Assembly (NCBI GenBank): GCA_052139675.1
Contig: JBKQWE010000085.1
Span: 1 to 64,000 of the forward strand
DNA from: Candidatus Brocadiia bacterium
Lineage (GTDB): Bacteria > Planctomycetota > Brocadiia > CAIUPP01
Length of the DNA stretch: 64,000 bases
Direction: 5' to 3'
In this document: in pieces, positions 1 to 63,790 of the stretch
Position numbering within the stretch: position 1 is the stretch's first letter
Layout of the letters: the number at the start of each line of letters is the position of its first letter
Notes under the pieces: model-generated
Told to the model about the DNA's origin: nothing
What the model saw: only the letters and a program-made list of their open reading frames with translations
Database searches by the model: none
Position numbers and translations under genes: made by a program

Positions 1-199
1 CGCGTGAGCGGCGCACGGGGTGTGAGATTCCTCGCTACGCTCGGAATGACGCTCGCCACTTCAGTGGCTCTTTCCGCGACTTTCAGTCGCGACTCAACCT
101 ACCGCCTTTAGGCGGTAGTGGTTTAGAGGACGATTCAAGGGCAAATTCCGGCTTGCGCGGGCGCATTTCTGCGTTGATGTTTCCAGAGGGAGGAGACAG

Positions 200-2194: not shown

Positions 2195-3154
2195 TCAGAC
2201 CGCGAGCTTGCCCTGTTCGAGCAGGCACTCGATGCACTCGCGATAGATCTGCTCGGTGGTGTAGCGCGGCGAATAGCCCAGGAGCCGCCGGCCTTTCTCG
2301 ATGCTGGCGCACGGTGAGTGGCTGATGTGCTCCAGCGTAATCCCGTAGTTCTTCTCGCCGACGGCCTCGCGGTATCGGTCCAGCGGCAGGAATTTCAGGT
2401 TCGGCTTCCTGCCGAACAGCGTGGCCACCGAGTTGCAGCAGCCCGCGAGCGTCATGGCATAGGGCGCCACGGCGCTGAAGCTCTGACCGAGCGCCGCCTC
2501 GCGGCGGGTCATGGCCAGCTCGAAGAGCTGCGCGACGTCGTCCCCGTGAACATGGTGGAGCCTGCCCAGCCCCATCTCGGGCAGGCAGACTTCCTGCCCG
2601 GTGGCCAGGCGCTCGTATACCTTGACGCCGTCGCGGGTTCCCTGCGGATCAATCGGCAGCCATCTGCGGCCGGAGATGTGCCCGGGATGGATGACGGTCG
2701 CCGGGAATCCTTCCTCGCGATACTTGCGCAGCAGGAACTCCTCGATCTTCGCCTTGTCCGCGCCGTACGGCGTGATCGGCTTGCGCGGAAAATGCTCTTC
2801 GTAAGGGACTTTCTCCGGCGGGCCGTAAGCCCAGACCGTGCCGCAGTGAATGAAATGCCCGATTCTGCCCTTGAAGGCGTCGTACATCTGGTGATTCTGT
2901 CCGAGCGTAAAGCAGAGCATGTCCATGACGACGTCAACGTCTATCTTCGCCATCCGCTGCGGCCACGTGCCGTCGGACTCTCCGGCGGTTCGGTCGGCCA
3001 GGACCCATTCCACCTCCGACCAGCCGAGCCGCGCGTCGGCGTACTGCGGCTGCGAGTGCCGCGCGACGGCCGCAACGGTGTGGCCTGCCTGGACAAGCCG
3101 CGGCACCAGGTAGCTTCCAATGTGCCCGGTCGCGCCGATGACGAGTACTCGCAT
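2195..3154 (-). CDS. NAD-dependent epimerase/dehydratase (SDR family)
   Basis: 319 aa. N-terminal Rossmann motif MRVLVIGATGHIGSYLVPRL, typical of extended SDR sugar epimerases. Confidence 0.85.
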   Translation of the reverse strand: MRVLVIGATGHIGSYLVPRLVQAGHTVAAVARHSQPQYADARLGWSEVEWVLADRTAGESDGTWPQRMAKIDVDVVMDMLCFTLGQNHQMYDAFKGRIGHFIHCGTVWAYGPPEKVPYEEHFPRKPITPYGADKAKIEEFLLRKYREEGFPATVIHPGHISGRRWLPIDPQGTRDGVKVYERLATGQEVCLPEMGLGRLHHVHGDDVAQLFELAMTRREAALGQSFSAVAPYAMTLAGCCNSVATLFGRKPNLKFLPLDRYREAVGEKNYGITLEHISHSPCASIEKGRRLLGYSPRYTTEQIYRECIECLLEQGKLAV

Positions 3155-3196
3155 GATCCTCCTCCTCCAAGTTGCGGTTTTCTGGATAGAACTGAT

Positions 3197-3294
3197 CCTC
3201 GTAATCGTAATCTTACTCGTAATCGTAATCGCCGTTTTGCGTCTCGACTAGAAGAAGTCCGGTTACGATTATGATTACGATTACGATTACGAAG
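3197..3294. repeat. Hexanucleotide-stem hairpin element, CGTAAT subfamily, copy A
   Basis: Left arm cctcgtaatcgtaatcttactcgtaatcgtaatcg, a loop of about 30 nt, and right arm ttacgattatgattacgattacgattacgaag. The arms are reverse complements built from CGTAAT/ATTACG hexamer units. Sits in the divergent gap between the epimerase and the spermidine-synthase-like gene. Confidence 0.8.
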
Positions 3295-3407
3295 CCGCGC
3301 TGTCAAGTTCCAGGCTCCCGATTTCGGCTTGCGGAACCGGCCGGGATATGTAGAATATCACCCGCGTGGCTCACGAGGGTATCGAACGGCCGGTCAACTG
3401 GGAAATC

Positions 3408-6373: not shown

Positions 6374-6892
6374 CTAGAGCTTCAGCGCGGGCAGGCCGGA
6401 CTGCACCCGGGTAAGCAGCGACACGAGCGCCTTGCGCTCGGAAACGGAAAGGCCGTGCATGAGCGCCGACACCCTGCCGGCGTGATCGGGCAGGAGTTTC
6501 TCGATGAGCCGCCGGCCGGCCGGGGTGAGCGCGATGGGCGTCACCCGGCGGTCGTCGCCGCTGGCCTCGCGCTTCACGTAGCCGTCGCGCTCAAGTCCGT
6601 CCACGAGGCCGGTGATGTTGCCCTTGGTCACCCCGTACAGTTCCGCCAGCTCCGAGTGGGAGAGCGCCCTGGGCAGATATTCCAGCAGCAGCCCCAGCAC
6701 GACGTATTTGCCCTGGCTGATCCCGTAGCGCGCCAGGTTGGTTCCGATGGCCGCCGAAACCTCGTCGGCGACGCCCAGCAGCACGTGGACCGCCCGGACC
6801 GCGGTGGGGTCCAGCGACGGAAAGCGCTCGGCGAAGCGCTTCAGCCGCTCGTATTTCGGGATGCGATGAACCACCCAGCGTTTCACGGCCAT
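6374..6892 (-). CDS. MarR family transcriptional regulator
   Basis: 172 aa with a winged-helix core (LSHSELAELYGVTKGNITGLVDGLERDGYVKREASGDDRRVTPIALTPAGRRL). Confidence 0.9.
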   Translation of the reverse strand: MAVKRWVVHRIPKYERLKRFAERFPSLDPTAVRAVHVLLGVADEVSAAIGTNLARYGISQGKYVVLGLLLEYLPRALSHSELAELYGVTKGNITGLVDGLERDGYVKREASGDDRRVTPIALTPAGRRLIEKLLPDHAGRVSALMHGLSVSERKALVSLLTRVQSGLPALKL

Positions 6893-10254: not shown

Positions 10255-10770
10255 ATGGCGGGCGATTCCCTTTTTCGCAAGATGATGCGGACGGACGCGC
10301 CGGCGGCCGTCATCGTGATCCGTTTTCTGGCCGGCGGCGTGTTCCTGATCGAGGGAGCGAAGAAGTTCCTCTTCGTCGCCCAATGGGGCGCCGGGCGGTT
10401 CGCCCGGATCGGCATCCCGGGGCCGGAGTTCACCGGGCCGTTCGTGGGCACCGTCGAGATCGTCTGCGGCGCGCTGCTCCTGCTGGGCCTGCTGACGCGG
10501 CTGGGCGCGGTCGTGCTGCTCATCAACATCTCCGTGGCCATCGCCACCACGAAGATTCCCATCCTCATCAAGAGCGGATTCTTCGCGATGGAGGACCCGG
10601 CCCGGACGGATTACTCCATGCTCATGAGCCTGGTTTTCCTGGCGGCGGTGGGGGCCGGAAAATGGTCGCTCGATTCCGTGCTCTGGGGCGGGCCGCCGCG
10701 CACCACGCCGAGGACGGCATCCTCATCCCCTGTCACTTCGCCCGGCGCCGATAATGGGCGGCGACTTTAG
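10255..10770 (+). CDS. DoxX family membrane protein
   Basis: Four predicted TM helices and DoxX-like motifs (FLAGGVFLIEGAKKF..., VEIVCGALLLLGLLTRLGA). Confidence 0.65.
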   Translation: MAGDSLFRKMMRTDAPAAVIVIRFLAGGVFLIEGAKKFLFVAQWGAGRFARIGIPGPEFTGPFVGTVEIVCGALLLLGLLTRLGAVVLLINISVAIATTKIPILIKSGFFAMEDPARTDYSMLMSLVFLAAVGAGKWSLDSVLWGGPPRTTPRTASSSPVTSPGADNGRRL

Positions 10771-11980
10771 CCGCGGCGCGGACCAGGTCGCGCATGTCGC
10801 GCACGGTGAAGAAGTCGTTCATCCATAGCTGGATCGTCCGCCGCTTGACCTCCATCGCGCCGGGATAGTGGGCGACGTCGTAATCGGGCCGTCCGCCTTT
10901 GTAAAGCGGGCAGGCGTCCGCGCAGGCGTGCGGGCTGAGCAGGTGGTCCCGGAAGATCGGCCAGTCCATGACATTCGACTGGAAGGCCCCGACTCCAATC
11001 CCTTCCGCCCGCATGGCGGCAGCGAATTCCGTGTTGGTGCAGTGAAGTTTCTCCGGCGCGATGTGGAAGAGGTAGTACCAGTACGTGGCGTAGTCGCCCT
11101 TGCGCACGGGGCGCGGGGTGATGCCGTCAATCCGCGCCAGCGAGCGATCCAGGTAGCGGCCCAGCCGGTTCCGAGTGGAGCAGACGCGTCGGACTCTCTT
11201 GAGCTGCTCCAGGCAAACCGCCGCCACCAGGGTATTGAGCCGGTAGTTGTACGGCGCGAAGAAAGGCTGAACGCCACGGCCTTCGCGGTCGTAGCACTTG
11301 TCGGCGAAAAGGTCCGCGCGGCGCGCCAGGCCCTGACGGTTCGTGAGCATGATCCCGCCGTCGCCGGCGCCGATGTGCTTGCTCTCGTTCAGGCTCCAGC
11401 AGCCGATGTCGCCGAAGGTGCCGGCGTAGCGCCGCCCCTGCCTGCAGAGGTAGCTCTGCGCCATGTCCTCCACCACGGCAATTCCGCGGCGATGCGCCAG
11501 GCGGACAATGCCCCGGCTGTCCGCCGGGAGGCCCGCCAGGTGCACCAGCATGATGGCCTTGGTCCGCGGCGTAATCTTCCGCGCCACGGTCTCCGGCGTG
11601 ACCTCGACGGTCAGCGGGTCCACGTCGGCGAAGATCGGGACGGCATTCTGCGCCAGGATGGGGATCAGAGTGCCCATGTCGGTGATCGGGCTGGTGATGA
11701 CCTCGTCGCCGCGGCCGATGCCCAGCGCCCCGATCGCCGTGTGAAGCGCGGCCGTGCCGCTGGAGGCGGTGACCGCGTATTTCATTCCGAAGAGCTTCTT
11801 GAACTGCTCGCGCAAGGCCATCACCTCGGGCCCGCGGGTCATTTGAATGGCGCCGCGCTCGAAGATCGGCTTGATGGCCCGCCATTCCGCCAGGCTGTGC
11901 TTCGGGCCGGTGGAAAAAGGAGCGACCCGCACCGGCGGCCCGCCTTCGATGGCCAGCTTCGCAGGAGTCTTTCGATTCAT
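10733..11980 (-). CDS. DegT/DnrJ/EryC1/StrS family PLP-dependent sugar aminotransferase
   Basis: Family motifs TSSGTAALHTAIGALGIG, DVDPLT, SLNESKHIGAGDGGIMLTN. Start ATG with GGAGGAAGCC RBS. Its 3' end overlaps the DoxX gene 3' end convergently. Confidence 0.85.
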   Translation of the reverse strand: MNRKTPAKLAIEGGPPVRVAPFSTGPKHSLAEWRAIKPIFERGAIQMTRGPEVMALREQFKKLFGMKYAVTASSGTAALHTAIGALGIGRGDEVITSPITDMGTLIPILAQNAVPIFADVDPLTVEVTPETVARKITPRTKAIMLVHLAGLPADSRGIVRLAHRRGIAVVEDMAQSYLCRQGRRYAGTFGDIGCWSLNESKHIGAGDGGIMLTNRQGLARRADLFADKCYDREGRGVQPFFAPYNYRLNTLVAAVCLEQLKRVRRVCSTRNRLGRYLDRSLARIDGITPRPVRKGDYATYWYYLFHIAPEKLHCTNTEFAAAMRAEGIGVGAFQSNVMDWPIFRDHLLSPHACADACPLYKGGRPDYDVAHYPGAMEVKRRTIQLWMNDFFTVRDMRDLVRAAAKVAAHYRRRAK

Positions 11981-12033
11981 GGCTTCCTCCTCTTCTTGAA
12001 CCATTTCACCCATCTCCGACGCGATCGCCGCTC

Positions 12034-13509
12034 CTACTTCGCGGGCGCGTCCTCCATCGCCGCCTCGTCATCGAACCCGGGCACCTTGTAGTTCTTCAGG
12101 CCGCCCAATCGTTTCCACTCGCGGTACATCAGCAACAGGAAGACCAGCGCGGCGCAAAGAAACGGCAGCCGCCAGGCCGGGATCATGCGATAGCAGTAGT
12201 CGGTGCCCCACTTGTCGTCGGGGAACGCCCGGCGCATCACCGTCATGTAAAGGCCCGCCGCCAGGGTAGCCAGGATGCCGCAGGCCGCCTGGACGATGGC
12301 GTTGAACGAACAGAACTGCCCGTACCGGCTCTTGGGCCAGACCAGCATCTGCATCGGCTGCCGCGTGGTATCGTACAATAGTCCCAGCGGCAGTTCCACT
12401 GCGGCCAGCGCAATCAGGATGTGGAACGCGGTCCGCGGCTGGAACTTTCCGAACAGCCAGATGAAATTGAGCGGCACGATCGCCACCAGCCCGATCTTGA
12501 TCCAGACCATGACCCGCATCGGGTGAAAGCGGTCCGCCAGCATTCCCGCCGGGTAGCTCAGGACCATCTGCACGCCGCTCACCGCGGCGGCGATGAGGCC
12601 GATCTGCTCCAGGGTCAGCCCCAGCGAAAGGCTCAGGAACACCGTATAGGTCCCGCATGCCGAAGATACGGACCAGAAAATGTTATGCACGAACATGTAA
12701 ATGTACAGCCGGTGGCTGAGGCACTCTTTCGCGTAGATCCTCAGCTTCGTCCAGAAACCCTCGCCCATCGCCGGAGCGGGCGGGTATTTTCCCTCTTTGA
12801 TCCCCAGGCACATCGTCAGGAAGCCGACGAAATAGACCAGCGCGGCGCACAGGAAAATCAACTTACTGTGCGTCAGCGCGTGCTGGTAGATGAGGCCGTT
12901 CCACAGCATGGCCGCCAGGCTGCTGACGAGCCGGAAGAGGCCGAAAAAGCGCGACATGAACAGGCCGGGCACGACGTCGTTGAAAAAGTAATAATACACG
13001 GTGGTGGCGAACATATTGAGGACCGTGAACATAATCCATAACACCGCCATGGCCAGGATCGCCACCGCGCCGGCGCTCCACCCGGTCATCGGGCCGATGC
13101 GGCCGTGCAGCCACACGCCGATTTCCGTTGAGAACGCCAGCAGCACGAGCGCGCCGCAGATGAACGGGGCAGAGAACAGCATGAATGGAATCCGCCGCCC
13201 GAACCGCCCGCGATAGCGGTCGCTGGCGGTCGAGATCACCGGGTTGAGCATCGTATTGATGATGTTGGGGATCGTCGCCGTGACGACGGGCAGGAGAAAA
13301 TCGGAGATGCCGAGTTGCTTGAGCCGCAGCGGCACGATGCTCGGGGCCACCGACTCCATGAGCTGGAAAACGAAGTCGCCCCACAGCAGCATTAAGAACA
13401 CCCACGCCAGCCCCGCCTTCGTGTACTGCAGCGTGCCCACGCGGAAACGCGCGTTGGTGTCCACGATGGGCGGCATCTCGGGACTGCTCAAGGTCGCGGG
13501 CTCCGTCAT
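12034..13509 (-). CDS. MFS-type transporter (sugar:cation symporter-like)
   Basis: 491 aa with about 12 TM segments throughout. GGAGA RBS. The conserved leader motif (next feature) lies immediately upstream. Confidence 0.65.
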   Translation of the reverse strand: MTEPATLSSPEMPPIVDTNARFRVGTLQYTKAGLAWVFLMLLWGDFVFQLMESVAPSIVPLRLKQLGISDFLLPVVTATIPNIINTMLNPVISTASDRYRGRFGRRIPFMLFSAPFICGALVLLAFSTEIGVWLHGRIGPMTGWSAGAVAILAMAVLWIMFTVLNMFATTVYYYFFNDVVPGLFMSRFFGLFRLVSSLAAMLWNGLIYQHALTHSKLIFLCAALVYFVGFLTMCLGIKEGKYPPAPAMGEGFWTKLRIYAKECLSHRLYIYMFVHNIFWSVSSACGTYTVFLSLSLGLTLEQIGLIAAAVSGVQMVLSYPAGMLADRFHPMRVMVWIKIGLVAIVPLNFIWLFGKFQPRTAFHILIALAAVELPLGLLYDTTRQPMQMLVWPKSRYGQFCSFNAIVQAACGILATLAAGLYMTVMRRAFPDDKWGTDYCYRMIPAWRLPFLCAALVFLLLMYREWKRLGGLKNYKVPGFDDEAAMEDAPAK

Positions 13510-13640
13510 TCTCCGGGCTTCAGCCGGGATTTTCCATTCGACCGTCCCCTGGAGGACAGTCAGCGTTCAAAACGCATGAGACTAAACGGTCGAATTGCCG
13601 ATGTCAAGCCGTATCTCGGCAGTCTGCCGGTGATATATTT
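13510..13640 (-). promoter_or_regulatory. Conserved promoter plus leader/operator motif, copy 1
   Basis: Sense strand reads TTGACA-N17-TAGTCT-CAT, then hairpin/palindrome gaccgtcc..ggacagtc, then AAATCCCGGCTGAA, RBS and ATG. About 80% identical over roughly 100 nt to 63656-63790, which lies upstream of the heparinase-like gene. Confidence 0.5.
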
Positions 13641-31674: not shown

Positions 31675-31808
31675 CAGGATGCCAGGCGAGGCGATCGAGT
31701 GTGCGCAGCGGGGCCGAAGAATTCATTGACACGGGGAGAAAATGGGCTATAATTATTACGGGGAGTGTCGAAAATGAAGCAAAAGCGGTGACATGGGAGG
31801 GTCAAGCC

Positions 31809-32822: not shown

Positions 32823-33198
32823 TTATCGTTTCTCTTTCTTGTTGATGTGCCTGGACATGCACCAGCCGATGACAAAGCCGGCGGCGGCGGCGCACAAACA
32901 TATGAATGCGCTGAACAGCACCTTCTCTGTGCTGAACATCTCGCTCTCCTCTCTGCATGAGCCGGCCGCAAGGATACCATTTCCAGCGGCGCGGCGGAAG
33001 CGGGAGCCTTCCAAAATTGGAACAGTCGGAACACGGAGAGCCGAGAAACTGCTTGACAGCGGCAATTCGACGGTATAACCTGATGGCTGCATGGGCAAAA
33101 AGGGGAATGCCGGTTGAAAAGTGCCAAGCCGCGAAACATCGCGTGAGAGGAGCGCGCGGGGAAAAGGGCTCCTTTGCTTTTCATTAGGAGGCGCCGGT

Positions 33199-33684
33199 AT
33201 GTGGTACTTGCGGGCGTTAGCCGTCGTGGCAGTTGCGGTGCCGCTGGCCGTCGGCACGGGATGCAACACAGTGCCGAAGGAGAAGTACGACCAGGACGTC
33301 ATGGCCGCGCAGAAGAAGACCGATGCGGCGCAGAAGAAGACCGACGCGGCGCTGAAGCAACTCGACCAGGTCCGCAAGGACCTCAAGGCGGCGCAGGACC
33401 AACTGGCGGCGAGCCGTCGTTCCCTCAGTGACTTGAAGGCGGCGCAGAGCCAGGCCGCCGACCAGAAGACCCGCGCGGACCAGTTGCAGAGCCAGCTTGC
33501 GGAGGCCCAGACGGCGCTGGATCAAGCCCGCAAGGACTTAGGCGCCGAGACGCAGAAGACGGGCAAGCTCCAGCAGGAAGTGGATTCGCAGAAGACCATG
33601 GAAGCCGAGCTGGCGGCCGCGAAGAAGGCCCTGGCGGATATCGCGAAGAAGCTCGGATCGGCGGCGCCGGCGGTGAACCAGTAG
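33199..33684 (+). CDS. Coiled-coil lipoprotein
   Basis: Lipobox LAVGTGC, then heptad-rich Ala/Gln/Lys coiled coil with repeated QKKTDAA. AGGAGG RBS. Confidence 0.55.
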   Translation: MWYLRALAVVAVAVPLAVGTGCNTVPKEKYDQDVMAAQKKTDAAQKKTDAALKQLDQVRKDLKAAQDQLAASRRSLSDLKAAQSQAADQKTRADQLQSQLAEAQTALDQARKDLGAETQKTGKLQQEVDSQKTMEAELAAAKKALADIAKKLGSAAPAVNQ

Positions 33685-35599: not shown

Positions 35600-36613
35600 A
35601 TGCATCCTCGAACCTGTGGAGTCGTAATGGCCGCGCTCGCGTGCGCGGGCGCGTTGACGCTCGCCGTCATCACCGGTTGCGCGACTACGACGGTCGAGGC
35701 CGAGGCCGTCCGCCCCGCCGGCGAGCCGGGCGCGGGCCAGCAGCAATTCGACACGGACGAGCAGGCCGCCGCCGCGCTCGTCGCCGCCGCCAAGGCGCGC
35801 GACCGCGCCGCTCTCGACCGCCTGTTCGGCCCCGCCGCTCCGGAGTTCGTCACCGGCGACAAGGTCGAGGACGAGAAGGCCTTCGACCGCTTCGTCAAGA
35901 ACGCCGGCGAGCATCTCGAGTTGGAGAAGAAGGACGCGGACACCTCCGTCGTTGACATCGGCAAGGACAACTGGCCCTTCCCGATTCCGCTGAAGCGCCT
36001 GCCGGACGGCAAGTGGTTCTTCGACACCGAGGCGGGCAAAAAGGAAATCCTCGCCCGCCGCATCGGCGCGAACGAGTTGGATACCATCGCCGCCTGCCGG
36101 GCCTATCTGGAAGCGCAGCGGGAATACGCCAGCGAGGACCGCGACGACAGCGGCGTGCTCAAGTACGCCCAGCGCTTCATCAGCAGGAACGGCAAGGACG
36201 GGCTTTACTGGGAAGCGGCTCCGGGCGAAGAGGAAAGCCCGTTCGGCGAGTTCATCGCCCAGGCCGATGCGGAAGGTTACACGCTCGGGCAGAAGGACCA
36301 GTCCGGCCCGCAGCCCTACCACGGCTACTTCTACCGCATCCTCAAGTGCCAGGGCCCCGACGCGCCCGGCGGCCAATACGACTACGTCATCAACGGCAAC
36401 ATGATCGCCGGCTTCGCCCTGGTCGCCTGGCCGAGCGAGTACGGCTCCTCCGGCGTGATGACGTTCATCATCAGCCACCAGGGCAAGCTCTATCAGAAGG
36501 ACCTCGGGCCCAAGACCTCGGACATCGCGCGGAATATGAAGGAATACAATCCCGACAGCAGTTGGACGCTGGTGGAGGATGAGGGAGTATCGAACGCGGC
36601 GCCCGAGAAATGA
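35600..36613 (+). CDS. DUF2950 family lipoprotein
   Basis: Lipobox VITGC. Placed immediately downstream of a DUF3300 gene; as far as I recall these two families commonly co-occur. AAGGAGAG RBS. The track ORF from 34910 is rejected upstream of this ATG. Confidence 0.6.
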   Translation: MHPRTCGVVMAALACAGALTLAVITGCATTTVEAEAVRPAGEPGAGQQQFDTDEQAAAALVAAAKARDRAALDRLFGPAAPEFVTGDKVEDEKAFDRFVKNAGEHLELEKKDADTSVVDIGKDNWPFPIPLKRLPDGKWFFDTEAGKKEILARRIGANELDTIAACRAYLEAQREYASEDRDDSGVLKYAQRFISRNGKDGLYWEAAPGEEESPFGEFIAQADAEGYTLGQKDQSGPQPYHGYFYRILKCQGPDAPGGQYDYVINGNMIAGFALVAWPSEYGSSGVMTFIISHQGKLYQKDLGPKTSDIARNMKEYNPDSSWTLVEDEGVSNAAPEK

Positions 36614-61438: not shown

Positions 61439-63655
61439 TTACGGCGCCGGCGGCGCGGCCGTCTGGGCATCCACCGTTACGTCGAAGCCGCCCTGGCGCG
61501 AGCCGTGCCAGGTGGCCGCCTCAAACCTGCCCTTGGCCGCCTCCCATTTCCACGTGTCGGCGATGCCCTGCCCGCTGACCGTGATCGTCGCCTTGTCCGG
61601 ACCGTCGGGCGTCAGGGTGACTTTCACTTCCTTGTGCCACGGGTCAATGACGCAGGCGTAGCGCGCGGCGTTTCCCTTGGCGCTGGCCTGGAGCTGTTGC
61701 CAGTTCATCAGTTTGCTGCGATCGTTGGCGGTCGAGACGCCGATCTTCGACTTGAGCGGCACGTCCGCCACAAGCTGGAACTCGCACTCGGCAGCGCCCT
61801 TGGCCAGCCGGTAGCGCCCCTCGGCCGCGTTCACCGGCTGGAGCCTGGCGCCCTGGATGAGCCAGGTGATCTCGACCGGCTTCGGCGAGCGGATGTCGTC
61901 GAACGTCAGAATGTAGCCGTCCTTGACCCAGATGAAAGTCCGGCGGAAACGGTCAATGGCCGGGCGGCTCTTCTTGGCCGCGGCATCCTCGTAAGCCAGG
62001 TACGACCCGGCCGCCTCGCCTTCGGCCACCACGACATCGCCGGCGTCCTTATAGGCGGTGATCTTGGCCATCTCCGTCATGTCGTGATCGCCGGGCTGTT
62101 GCCACTCCTGCCCTTCGGGTTGCCCGTCCGCGGCCTGGCCGATGCCGTTGATCAGGATCGTGTTGACGCTCGAGGAGAGCTTGCCCGGCCTCTCCGCATA
62201 GCGGTCCGTCTCGGCCAGGTACTCGCCATCGCCCAGGACGACGAAGGAATTCGCGTCGGGATGATCATGGGCCACGTTTTCGTAGGGCAGCTTGCCGTCG
62301 GCGTCCTTGCGGCTCAATCGCCAGGCGCCGGCCTTGTAGCCGCCCATCGGGCCGCACTTGAACATCGCGGCCACGGCCTTGTCCTGCCAGGAATCGCGCG
62401 TGACGGAAATCCCCAAGTCCGGCAGGAACGCCGTCGTCGGCAGGTTGGCGTAATGGCCGCCCTGCACGGTCTGATCATTGAAGATCAGCGGCTGCCATGC
62501 GGACCCCTTCGCGCTCCATCCTTTGTCGTTGACTTGCAGGCCATGCCGGATGCCGTCCATGACGTCGGCCTGCTTATATATAGCGGCTGTTTTCAGGAAG
62601 AACGGATTGAAACTGGCCCCCTTGGTGAAGCAGTCGCCGAAGTACAGGGCCTCGGTCAGGCCCGGCGCCGAGATGTCCAGCGCGTAGGTGGCCACATTCC
62701 GATAGAACGGCAAGTCGAGATAATGCGTCCCGCTCAAATCGTCCGAGACTTTGAGCGCCATGCCCAGGGCGCCGGAACTGCCGCCGTAATAGGGTCCCTC
62801 GTGCTGGCTGCCGTCCGCCGGCAACCAGTCCGCCATGAACTTGAGTTCCTTCTCCACCTCGCTGAGCAGCCACTGTTCCTCCGGTTTGCCCTCGCCCGTG
62901 CCGAGGGCGGCCAGCGTCATGCCCCAGTCCCGGAACCAGCGGTGATTGTACGCCGGCACGCCGTGCCAGTAGTCGCCGCCGGGATTGGCGCCCTTGTGGC
63001 CGCCGTAGTACATCGCGCGGGCATGCTGCCAGAGCACCTGGCGGAACTCCTCGCGGAACGCCGGGTCCAGATCGTTGTACAGCCAGTCCCACGTCAGCGA
63101 CGCGCCGACCATCGTGAACGACGCCGTCGTATCGCTGTTCCGCTCATCGCGCGGTCCGAGCTGCTTCAACTTCTGCATGACCTTGGCATAGGCCTCCGGC
63201 GTGTCGGCCACGGCCGGCTCGCCGCCCTCGGTCCAATCGGCCGTCCCGGCCAGCCATTTCAGGTAAGCTACCGACTTCTCGAACGAGGCGTGGTCCTTCG
63301 TCAGCACATAGTGCAGGGCCACCGTCGGAATCTTGAGCAGCCCGTATTCCTGGCCCCAGGCCGGGCTCGTCTTGCGATCTTTCGGCACCGTGCACTCGGC
63401 GACATAACTTTCGATGTACGCCCGGTAGATGCTGCCCTGCGGGCTGTTGAACAAGGCCTTGAGCTGCGGAATCCGCTCGGCGGTGATCAGCAGCCTCGGA
63501 TGCTTGTTCGCAGCGGCATCAAGGTACTTGACGGCCGGCCCTTCCGCCGCGGCCGGATCCTTTTCCGGCATGATCGGCCCCGCGGCCCGTACCGACGCAG
63601 CAAAGACCAACGCAGCCGAAACCAGCGCCGCCGACGGCAGGAGGATCTTCATCAT
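61439..63655 (-). CDS. Heparinase II/III-like polysaccharide lyase family protein
   Basis: Signal peptide MMKILLPSAALVSAALVFAASVRA. Alpha/alpha-toroid N-terminal region and HDHPDANSFVV heparinase II/III-type motif. 738 aa. Confidence 0.65.
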   Translation of the reverse strand: MMKILLPSAALVSAALVFAASVRAAGPIMPEKDPAAAEGPAVKYLDAAANKHPRLLITAERIPQLKALFNSPQGSIYRAYIESYVAECTVPKDRKTSPAWGQEYGLLKIPTVALHYVLTKDHASFEKSVAYLKWLAGTADWTEGGEPAVADTPEAYAKVMQKLKQLGPRDERNSDTTASFTMVGASLTWDWLYNDLDPAFREEFRQVLWQHARAMYYGGHKGANPGGDYWHGVPAYNHRWFRDWGMTLAALGTGEGKPEEQWLLSEVEKELKFMADWLPADGSQHEGPYYGGSSGALGMALKVSDDLSGTHYLDLPFYRNVATYALDISAPGLTEALYFGDCFTKGASFNPFFLKTAAIYKQADVMDGIRHGLQVNDKGWSAKGSAWQPLIFNDQTVQGGHYANLPTTAFLPDLGISVTRDSWQDKAVAAMFKCGPMGGYKAGAWRLSRKDADGKLPYENVAHDHPDANSFVVLGDGEYLAETDRYAERPGKLSSSVNTILINGIGQAADGQPEGQEWQQPGDHDMTEMAKITAYKDAGDVVVAEGEAAGSYLAYEDAAAKKSRPAIDRFRRTFIWVKDGYILTFDDIRSPKPVEITWLIQGARLQPVNAAEGRYRLAKGAAECEFQLVADVPLKSKIGVSTANDRSKLMNWQQLQASAKGNAARYACVIDPWHKEVKVTLTPDGPDKATITVSGQGIADTWKWEAAKGRFEAATWHGSRQGGFDVTVDAQTAAPPAP

Positions 63656-63790
63656 TTGTCCTTCCGAACTGGTCTACCGATTCAGCCGGGATTTCCCGTT
63701 TGACCGTCCTCCGAAGGACGGTCGGCTTTGACGTATGAGACTAGAGAGTTCGGTTGCCGCTGTCAAATCAACCCCGTCGCGGCAGACCTG
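63656..63790 (-). promoter_or_regulatory. Conserved promoter plus leader/operator motif, copy 2
   Basis: Sense reads TTGACA-N17-TAGTCT-CAT, then gaccgtcc-tccgaa-ggacggtc (8-9-bp perfect palindrome), then AAATCCCGGCTGAA, GGAAGGA RBS and ATG of the heparinase-like gene. Matches 13510-13640. Confidence 0.5.

Follow-up and report, generated by a model that had tools for sequence, protein, structure and literature searches.

Predicted Promoter and Leader Copies Upstream of the Transporter and Lyase-Like Genes

The window analysed in this study (the whole stretch of 64,000 nt, positions 1 to 64,000 of contig JBKQWE010000085.1, from a Candidatus Brocadiia bacterium of the Planctomycetota) contains a recurring non-coding block, here called the cassette, in which a predicted sigma-70-type promoter is followed by a conserved 5' leader. 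Copy 1 (13519-13607, minus strand) lies upstream of an MFS transporter gene (12034-13509, minus strand; Pfam MFS_1), and the next gene after the transporter encodes a DegT-family aminotransferase (10733-12013, minus strand; Pfam DegT_DnrJ_EryC1). Copy 2 (63681-63766, minus strand) lies upstream of the gene for a secreted heparinase II/III- or alginate-lyase-like protein of 738 amino acids with a signal peptide (61439-63655, minus strand). Both copies possess TTGACA, a 17-nt spacer, TAGTCT, CAT, a hairpin, and GGRAAATCCCGGCTGAA. The two homologous upstream regions were found where the initial annotation had placed them, with the promoter elements, CAT, and hairpin it described.

The predicted promoter of copy 1 (13579-13607, minus strand) consists of TTGACA (13602-13607), the 17-nt spacer TCGGCAATTCGACCGTT, and TAGTCT (13579-13584). 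It is preceded by a segment that is conserved in the 13-copy alignment and includes the small palindrome GGCAG-A-CTGCC (13608-13630, minus strand). The leader hairpin (13540-13561, minus strand) reads GACTGTCC-TCCAGG-GGACGGTC and is paired as GACTGTCC(T)-CCAG-(G)GGACGGTC, with one U-G wobble and a local folding energy of -18.8 kcal/mol (z = -2.5). The linker GAAT and the box GGAAAATCCCGGCTGAA follow (13519-13539, minus strand; box 13519-13535), and a Shine-Dalgarno (SD) sequence, GGAG, is located at 13501-13504 (minus strand). In copy 2, the predicted promoter (63738-63766, minus strand) has TTGACA at 63761-63766, a 17-nt spacer, and TAGTCT at 63738-63743. Its perfect hairpin GACCGTCC-TTCGGA-GGACGGTC (63702-63723, minus strand) folds as 9 bp with a UCGG loop (-16.4 kcal/mol, z = -2.9), and it is followed by the linker AAAC and the box GGGAAATCCCGGCTGAA (63681-63701, minus strand; box 63681-63697). 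The palindrome is therefore perfect in copy 2 and has one mismatch in copy 1, as had been claimed; that mismatch is T opposite G, i.e., a G-U wobble on the sense strand.

When copy 1 was compared with the window by BLASTN, copy 2 was matched with 75% identity over 89 nt (E = 4e-12), and the identity of the two blocks in the MAFFT alignment was 0.73. The homology reported in the initial annotation was thus confirmed, and its figure of about 80% was slightly too high. Furthermore, the composite pattern TTGACA-N17-TANNCT-N20-50-AATSCCGGYTGAA was matched three times in the window; the value for 100 shuffles was 0.00.

Further Copies in the Window

Of the three pattern matches, one was a copy that had been overlooked earlier (33053-33118, plus strand), in which the promoter and box are kept and the hairpin is absent. 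Copy 3 comprises CTTGACAGCGGCAATTCGACGGTA-TAACCT, 24 nt without a hairpin, and the box GGGGAATGCCGGTTGAA at 33102-33118 (33040-33118 in all, plus strand; nhmmer E = 1e-12 to 5e-14). The box is 80 nt upstream of the downstream gene, which starts at ATG 33199 and encodes a coiled-coil lipoprotein-like protein of 161 amino acids (33199-33684, plus strand). After this gene, the operon contains a second coiled-coil open reading frame (ORF) and DUF3300, DUF2950, and DUF2079 genes.

A candidate fourth copy was noted at 96-155 (plus strand), upstream of an SPFH/Band-7 gene (ATG 200). It has a perfect hairpin, CTACCGCC-TTTA-GGCGGTAG (99-118), followed by the degenerate box AGGACGATTCAAGGGCAAATTCCGGCTTG, and the nhmmer E-values were 0.007-0.017. 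No promoter part was recognisable, and no match was obtained with the covariance model; the region is possibly a decayed relic of the cassette, which is unproven. The 3' arm of its hairpin (111-118), in the leader of the SPFH/Band-7 gene, is the exact enterobacterial ops core GGCGGTAG; about two chance occurrences of such an 8-mer are expected in 128 kb for the window.

In addition, a 13-nt exact identity (TTGACATCGGCAA) to the -35 element and spacer of copy 1 was observed at 35952-35964 (plus strand), inside the DUF2950 coding region; it was judged not to be expected by chance, and BLASTN gave E = 0.31 for this query. At 31726-31754 (plus strand), TTGACA-17-ATAATT forms a near-consensus sigma-70 promoter, indicating that the organism uses canonical promoters. 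Accordingly, the -10 element TAGTCT of the cassette is a conserved departure from consensus.

Copies in Related Genomes and Metagenomes

Relatives were searched by composite-pattern scans of species-representative genomes and JGI metagenomes, followed by nhmmer on the fetched loci (numbered with the prefix L). Thirteen distinct copies were catalogued, with nhmmer E-values of 1e-12 to 1e-30, and the block was found in one Planctomycetota metagenome-assembled genome (MAG) and in metagenome contigs, mostly from peat or wetland. The covariance model R1, run over 359 kb, gave no copies beyond those from nhmmer. An orthologue of copy 1 is present at L035 (also L022 and L033), and orthologues of copy 2 are present at L025, L050/L051, and L052b, with lyases 88%, 81%, and 77% identical, respectively. 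Other copies are located upstream of a beta-helix (pectate-lyase-like) gene (L001, also L026/28/29/32, and L045a), a tandem paralogue of the beta-helix gene (L032b and L045b), a GDSL/SGNH esterase-like gene (L030), and a gene for 697 amino acids with a faint GH42 match (L052a). The genes behind the copies (MFS, lyase-like, beta-helix, GDSL esterase, GH42-like, and the coiled-coil lipoprotein operon) are mutually non-homologous, and the block occurs in at least seven distinct gene contexts in relatives. The presence of the motif upstream of other genes had been named in advance as a check, and the three copies in the window, together with those in relatives, gave a positive answer.

The cassette is not kept whole in every orthologue. 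In the beta-helix orthologues at L041, L043/44, and L048 (80-83% amino-acid identity), the promoter and much of the spacer are kept (e.g., cTTGACAGCGGCAATCCGACCGTATAACCTCACG), and a leader hairpin of other sequence is followed directly by the ribosome-binding site (RBS), without GGACGGTC and the box. The upstream region at L042 is entirely different. At L049, the lyase gene is placed 72 nt after another gene; the promoter and hairpin are lost, and what remains is the box (GGGAAATGCCGGTTGAA) with the stretch between it and the start codon. Moreover, the L052b box has degenerated to GGTCAAA in its 3' half, and the L052a box is truncated after GGAAAT, continuing into the SD sequence. Since the promoter, hairpin, or box is lost in one orthologue or another, the parts of the cassette are separable, and none of them is indispensable over longer evolutionary distances.

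Several observations concern the surroundings and the origin of the copies. The shorter motif GAATCCCGGYTGAA was considered as a leader motif widespread across phyla, with 19 matches in the scan of the genome collection and 17 in that of the metagenomes. The matches outside the true family were close to the chance number (roughly 9 and 5 by information content), and the idea was dropped. At L010/L031 (Phycisphaerales) and L017, a few extra bases match beyond GAATCCCGGYTGAA. An origin from a mobile element found no support, with no match in viral contigs or plasmids, and no terminal inverted repeats were seen at the cassette on inspection by eye only. In the beta-helix paralogue copy of L032 (2680-2700, plus strand), direct repeats TTGGAG..TTGGAG lie on either side of a segment with GACGGTT and the box; the box-less orthologues look like the product of a deletion between these repeats, or the box may have arrived by insertion. 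VapBC and MazEF toxin-antitoxin pairs adjoin cassette-bearing beta-helix genes (L045, 9146-9783; L043, 11433-12013; L048, 7568-8145). A further observation concerns the spacer of copy 2 (63744-63754, minus strand), which differs from that of its orthologue L025 at seven of 11 clustered positions (ACCGAACTCTC vs ATGGGACCGTT). The rest of the two cassettes is nearly identical, and the L025 version of the spacer agrees with other copies; the difference may represent a conversion or replacement tract.

Conservation of the Cassette and Properties of the Box

Among paralogous copies, the similar region extends from about 25 nt before the -35 element to GGCTGAA(G), where it stops abruptly. The mean pairwise identities among paralogues, with one representative per gene context, were 0.46 for the upstream flank, 1.00 for the -35 element (the same in all paralogue representatives), 0.67 for the spacer, and 0.81 for the -10 element. 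In the predicted transcript, they were 0.55 from the start to the hairpin, 0.75 for the 5' arm, 0.54 for the loop, 0.81 for the 3' arm, 0.63 for the linker, and 0.81 for the box, which equals the -10 element. Beyond the box, the value fell to 0.32 over the next six bases. So uneven a profile would not result if a duplicated block had decayed uniformly, and it makes a better case for retention of the arms and box than the comparison with four-fold codon sites considered below. The initial annotation emphasised the palindrome, but within the transcribed portion conservation is highest in the 17-nt box.

AAU and GGYUGAA hardly vary within it, in contrast to the three bases between them (CCC, GCC, CGC, CCG, or UCC). 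The distance from the promoter to the box is constant except for two deletions, whereas between the box and the RBS or start codon there are about 15 to 80 nt, with sequence unrelated between copies. The block is thus anchored to the promoter and not to the RBS. The homology includes the spacer and flanks, showing that the copies share a single ancestral sequence and did not arise by convergence.

The box was compared with known RNA elements and possible pairing partners. A search with Rfam 15 gave no match at the gathering score in the window and nothing relevant up to E = 10 on copy 1 or 2. Possible partners of the box are GUUCRG beside the SD sequence for YUGAAU in the lyase orthologues, AGCCGG for CCGGCU in the MFS leaders, and the SD sequence GGAUU for AAUCC in L030. 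These partners are specific to each gene family, and pairing between the box and the RBS was rejected as a common structure. A pseudoknot between the hairpin loop (UUYRG) and CUGAA of the box was also set aside; it is compatible with copy 2, L025, and L030 and mismatched in copy 1 and L001, and transitions were the only changes by which to judge it. Likeness of the box to a tRNA T-arm or acceptor or to the 16S 3' end was judged by eye only, with no convincing match. It was concluded from these comparisons that the box would be a primary-sequence element read by some protein or RNA.

Properties of the Leader Hairpin

The potential to form a hairpin is retained across copies through G-U wobbles, one compensatory pair, and register shifts. 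Where copy 1, L035, L001, and L045b carry a mismatch, U stands opposite G. In addition, L045b has C-G where the others have U-A, with C.A intermediates in L001 and L045a. A strong hairpin shifted by 3 nt, with three extra basal pairs, is found in L050 and L052b, and L030 has 7-bp arms and an 8-nt loop. In L032b and the orthologues with short leaders, other hairpins occupy the same position. These variants favour pairing as such, and L049, with its box in a 72-nt intercistronic gap, also leans towards RNA. For the named helix in 11 copies, 86% of the cells were paired, against 27-49% for slid partners, a high fraction that is expected because the helix was read off these same sequences.

The inverted repeat could also be recognised as DNA. 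Two conserved half-sites near the promoter are present, as expected of the operator of a dimeric repressor. GAC(C/G)GTC is itself palindromic, and a further GACCGT is found in the promoter spacer of most copies. Together with a palindrome near -55, outside the predicted transcript, these features leave room for protein binding to DNA. The half-site spacing is not constant among members; spacing or register differs in L030, L050, and L052b, and copy 3 is without the repeat. The upstream palindrome itself, GGCAG-N-CTGCC or GGCGG-A-CCGCC, is situated about 10 nt upstream of the -35 element of copy 1 (13612-13622, minus strand). It is also present in L045a, L052a, L035, and L050, and its halves co-vary between copies; it may be a binding site for an activator, situated outside the transcript.

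The sequence after the hairpin is (G/A)AA(U/C)GG(G/A)AAAUCCC and contains no U-tract, and a terminator scan found no terminator on the sense strand there. Therefore, the hairpin is not an intrinsic terminator. With no alternative terminator either, the suggestion of an attenuator in the initial annotation was not supported.

Proposed Function of the Cassette

The cassette may be a lineage-specific sigma-70 promoter and 5' leader of about 125 bp that is retained by selection and most probably acts in the mRNA leader, a reading to which we give an even chance. It would be composed of a sigma-70-type promoter (TTGACA, a 17-bp partly conserved spacer, and TA(G/A)(T/C)CT) with about 25 bp of conserved upstream flank, and of the first approximately 65 nt of the transcript. 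In the latter, a GC-rich stem-loop of 8-9 bp would start about 14 nt after the predicted start, followed by an A-rich linker and then the 15-17-nt box GGRAAU-NNN-GGYUGAA. Duplication or recombination of the promoter region ('promoter propagation') would have spread the cassette before unrelated genes. One common control would thereby have been extended to genes for mostly secreted proteins resembling carbohydrate-active enzymes, as well as to operons for a transporter and the envelope. The 5' stem-loop might serve as a stabiliser or presentation element, and the box might be the recognition sequence for a trans-acting factor. The homology of the block, its family of copies, the unrelated nature of the downstream genes, and the uneven conservation are shown here, and promoter activity, the start of transcription, action at the RNA level, and co-regulation are inferred.

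The hairpin and box would more probably act in the mRNA than as a DNA operator. In a small group of uncultured Planctomycetota from peat bogs, the genes behind the cassette are probably regulated together. The small regulon linking a transporter and a lyase, as proposed in the initial annotation, would be enlarged to a family with at least seven gene contexts, and it would not be confined to polysaccharide genes, because copy 3 precedes the lipoprotein/DUF3300/DUF2950 operon. A more far-reaching proposal is that the promoter and an RNA-level element were copied as a unit, assembling a regulon for polysaccharide degradation and the envelope, and that the leader represents a new class of leader RNA; this is put forward tentatively, as possible rather than probable.

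Several points weigh against action of a selected leader in the mRNA. The promoter and leader are themselves predictions. Covariation in the helix was not significant, since there was one double change in nine pairs, a number reached by 222 of 500 shuffles. The local folds were better than those of shuffled sequences in most copies and not in all (z from -0.2 to -2.9), and the folds of the whole leader were unremarkable against shuffles except in copy 2. The box was not consistently unpaired or paired across copies. Furthermore, the box or the hairpin has been lost in some orthologues, so that neither is indispensable. The identity of the block between orthologues (0.72-0.92) was similar to that of four-fold codon sites (about 0.74-0.84), a comparison that neither shows nor excludes constraint because a GC content at third codon positions (GC3) of about 0.94 makes these sites a poor neutral standard. 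The clustered differences in the spacer of copy 2 suggest that copies may exchange sequence, and there are hints that conversion between copies could keep them similar without selection. A synteny walk covering 44 kb near the LepA gene, in relatives whose LepA is about 82-84% identical, recovered no copy of the cassette. Finally, no mobilisation mechanism was identified for the cassette.

Alternative Explanations

An explanation that we consider unlikely, yet best placed among the alternatives, is a DNA operator. A dimeric transcription factor would bind the inverted repeat GACCGTCC-N6-GGACGGTC, maybe with the GACCGT of the spacer and the palindrome near -55, and would control every member of the regulon, either as an activator or as a roadblock repressor at about +14 to +35. 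The similar degree of conservation of both arms is consistent with this, as are the third GACCGT in the spacer of most copies, the palindromic nature of GAC(C/G)GTC, the lack of significant RNA covariation, and the position of GGCAG-N-CTGCC / GGCGG-A-CCGCC outside the predicted transcript. However, the spacing and register of the arms differ in L030, L050, and L052b, copy 3 keeps its promoter and box without the palindrome, and L049 keeps the box alone. Hairpins of other sequence are substituted in L032b and the short-leader orthologues, and the operator leaves unexplained a non-palindromic box that is at least equally conserved. Moreover, no regulator gene was seen adjoining any copy; the only transcription factor gene recognised in the window is a MarR-family gene (6374-6892, minus strand), about 7 kb from copy 1.

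It is also conceivable, and rather less likely, that the promoter alone is functional, and that the hairpin and box are passengers which are alike through recent duplication or gene conversion. This would account for homology at positions without obvious function (spacer and flanks), overall divergence similar to that of four-fold sites, the loss of the box or hairpin in some orthologues, and the clustered replacement in the spacer of copy 2, and it fits the published class of propagated promoters (PMC3488235). Passengers would not be expected to show arms and a box conserved like the -10 element in copies whose loop and start-proximal segment have fallen almost to background. The box of L049 outlived the loss of its promoter and hairpin, and hairpin potential was re-established in shifted registers, both of which speak against this explanation.

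The remaining three explanations are all very improbable. In the first, the box would be a five-codon leader mini-ORF, AUG GGA AAU CCC GGC UGA (MGNPG-stop), whose translation or stalling controls the leader. An AUG, four codons, and UGA are in frame in copy 1, L035, L025, L045a, L049, and L050, an SD-like GGAGGA is located 7 nt upstream, inside the hairpin, in several copies, and the variants GGC/GGU and CCC/CCG are synonymous. However, the start codon is not conserved, for which the mini-ORF was rejected: it is ACG in copy 2, L001, and L032b, AGA in L045b, and AAG in copy 3 (five of the 13 catalogued copies), and it flips between close orthologues. A 1-nt deletion in L030 yields a 65-codon out-of-frame ORF, the stop is lost in L052b, and the copies bearing AUG are different from those with a good SD sequence.

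The second, a control element for transcription elongation, is similarly hard to credit. Like ops/RfaH, LoaP leader hairpins, or boxA-boxB, it would recruit an elongation factor to RNA polymerase, in keeping with a promoter-proximal hairpin and single-stranded box at a fixed distance from the transcription start rather than the RBS, with the many polysaccharide-related genes downstream, and with the exact GGCGGTAG in the candidate fourth copy. However, the downstream units are short (one or two genes for copies 1 and 2), and there are no evident terminators to override. The canonical copies carry GGACGGTC and not the ops sequence; exact GGCGGTAG occurs only in the doubtful copy 4, with about two such 8-mers expected by chance in 128 kb. 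No specialised NusG paralogue turned up, though no search was aimed at one. The third, a riboswitch or attenuator in which a ligand- or protein-controlled alternative fold ends transcription or hides the RBS, would suit a conserved leader upstream of transport and catabolic genes and the pairing of the box with the SD sequence in L030 and of YUGAAU with GUUCRG beside it in the lyase orthologues, but it is scarcely compatible with a hairpin lacking a U-tract, pairings near the RBS that differ by copy, an RBS distance varying from 15 to 80 nt, the absence of an Rfam match and of a consistent fold, and so small and structure-poor an element.

Downstream Genes and Source Lineage

The start of the MFS gene was assigned to ATG 13509 in the initial annotation, and comparison with the orthologue favours TTG 13491 instead. 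The MFS start is probably TTG 13491, because ATG 13509 is ACG in the orthologue, and the TTG and the following peptide are conserved. The gene had also been described as a polysaccharide-utilisation gene; its product is a generic MFS_1 protein, and the link to polysaccharide use is putative. For the gene behind copy 2, the start is probably the second ATG (63652). The direct matches of its product were weak, namely the oligo-alginate lyase PDB 3a0o (E = 1e-10) and Pfam DUF4962 (E = 0.007). PF07940 is found in its homologues, whose names are heparinase II/III family or DUF4962. Direct support for the label 'heparinase II/III-like' is therefore weak, and the domain and name are those of the homologues.

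The nearest named relatives of the LepA protein were from MAGs of the Planctomycetota, with about 69% identity, and a lyase homologue with 76% identity was from a Thermoguttaceae MAG. Elsewhere, the window sequence was matched only on a 5-kb Logan contig.

A separate observation was made in the leader (3155-3306, minus strand) of an epimerase-like gene (2195-3154, minus strand). Five CGTAAT repeats are followed, about 35 nt on, by five GATTAC repeats, and the two sets together form a predicted hairpin about 100 nt long (-46.3 kcal/mol, z = -3.2), which is preceded by a -35-like cTTGACAGCG.

Comparison with Known Systems

To our knowledge, almost nothing is known of gene regulation in Planctomycetota. 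A shared cassette would let a co-regulated set of polymer-degradation genes be enumerated directly from metagenomes. It would also exemplify the growth of a regulon by re-use of a promoter region, and it provides a candidate new leader motif that is absent from Rfam.

Stem-loops at the 5' terminus, such as that of the ompA leader, stabilise mRNA and are usually within a few nt of the end. The cassette resembles these in its stable GC-rich leader hairpin near the 5' end, which has no terminator role and whose sequence is changeable. It differs in that, in most copies, some 14 nt separate the predicted 5' end from the hairpin, which would be terminal only in L030. With the roadblock operators of the LacI and GntR families, the cassette shares an imperfect inverted repeat just past the -10 element or start, common to catabolic and transport genes. 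Unlike such operators, the homology spans 125 bp and not a site of 16-22 bp, the spacing and register of the arms vary, one member is without the repeat, and there is no cognate regulator nearby.

We do not know of systems of the ops or LoaP type in the phylum Planctomycetota. Like the ops/JUMPstart and LoaP elements, of which that of LoaP is a hairpin, the cassette has a short conserved promoter-proximal leader element and precedes polysaccharide-related genes (PMC7819879; PMC12691694). The ops elements are leader signals of 12 nt (PMC7819879). The cassette is different from both in its sequence and in its short downstream units.

A close comparison is with the putative mobile promoters, that is, non-coding sequences of 50-100 nt that are homologous to one another and stand directly before non-homologous genes in one genome and its close relatives (PMC3488235). 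Matus-Garcia, Nijveen, and van Passel (2012) read such stretches as re-used promoters that rewire regulation, and no Planctomycetota case is mentioned in their study (PMC3488235). The homology of the cassette is likewise situated within about 150 nt upstream of start codons, with non-homologous downstream coding sequences, and, as in that study, most of the genes downstream are poorly characterised (PMC3488235). The cut-off used for mobile promoters was at least 80% identity over at least 50 nt (PMC3488235). Compared with this, the copies in the window showed 73-75% over about 90 nt, and copies 1 and 3 showed 83% over 46 nt. Identities of at least 0.80 were found for copy 1/L035 with L025, upstream of non-homologous genes in different genomes, and for L045a with L045b, upstream of paralogous genes. 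Unlike mobile promoters, the cassette runs about 65 nt into the predicted transcript and is unevenly conserved there. Propagated promoters and unclassified leader motifs are both common. Therefore, the cassette is no surprise in kind, being a propagated promoter joined to an unclassified leader motif, each of which is of a known kind.

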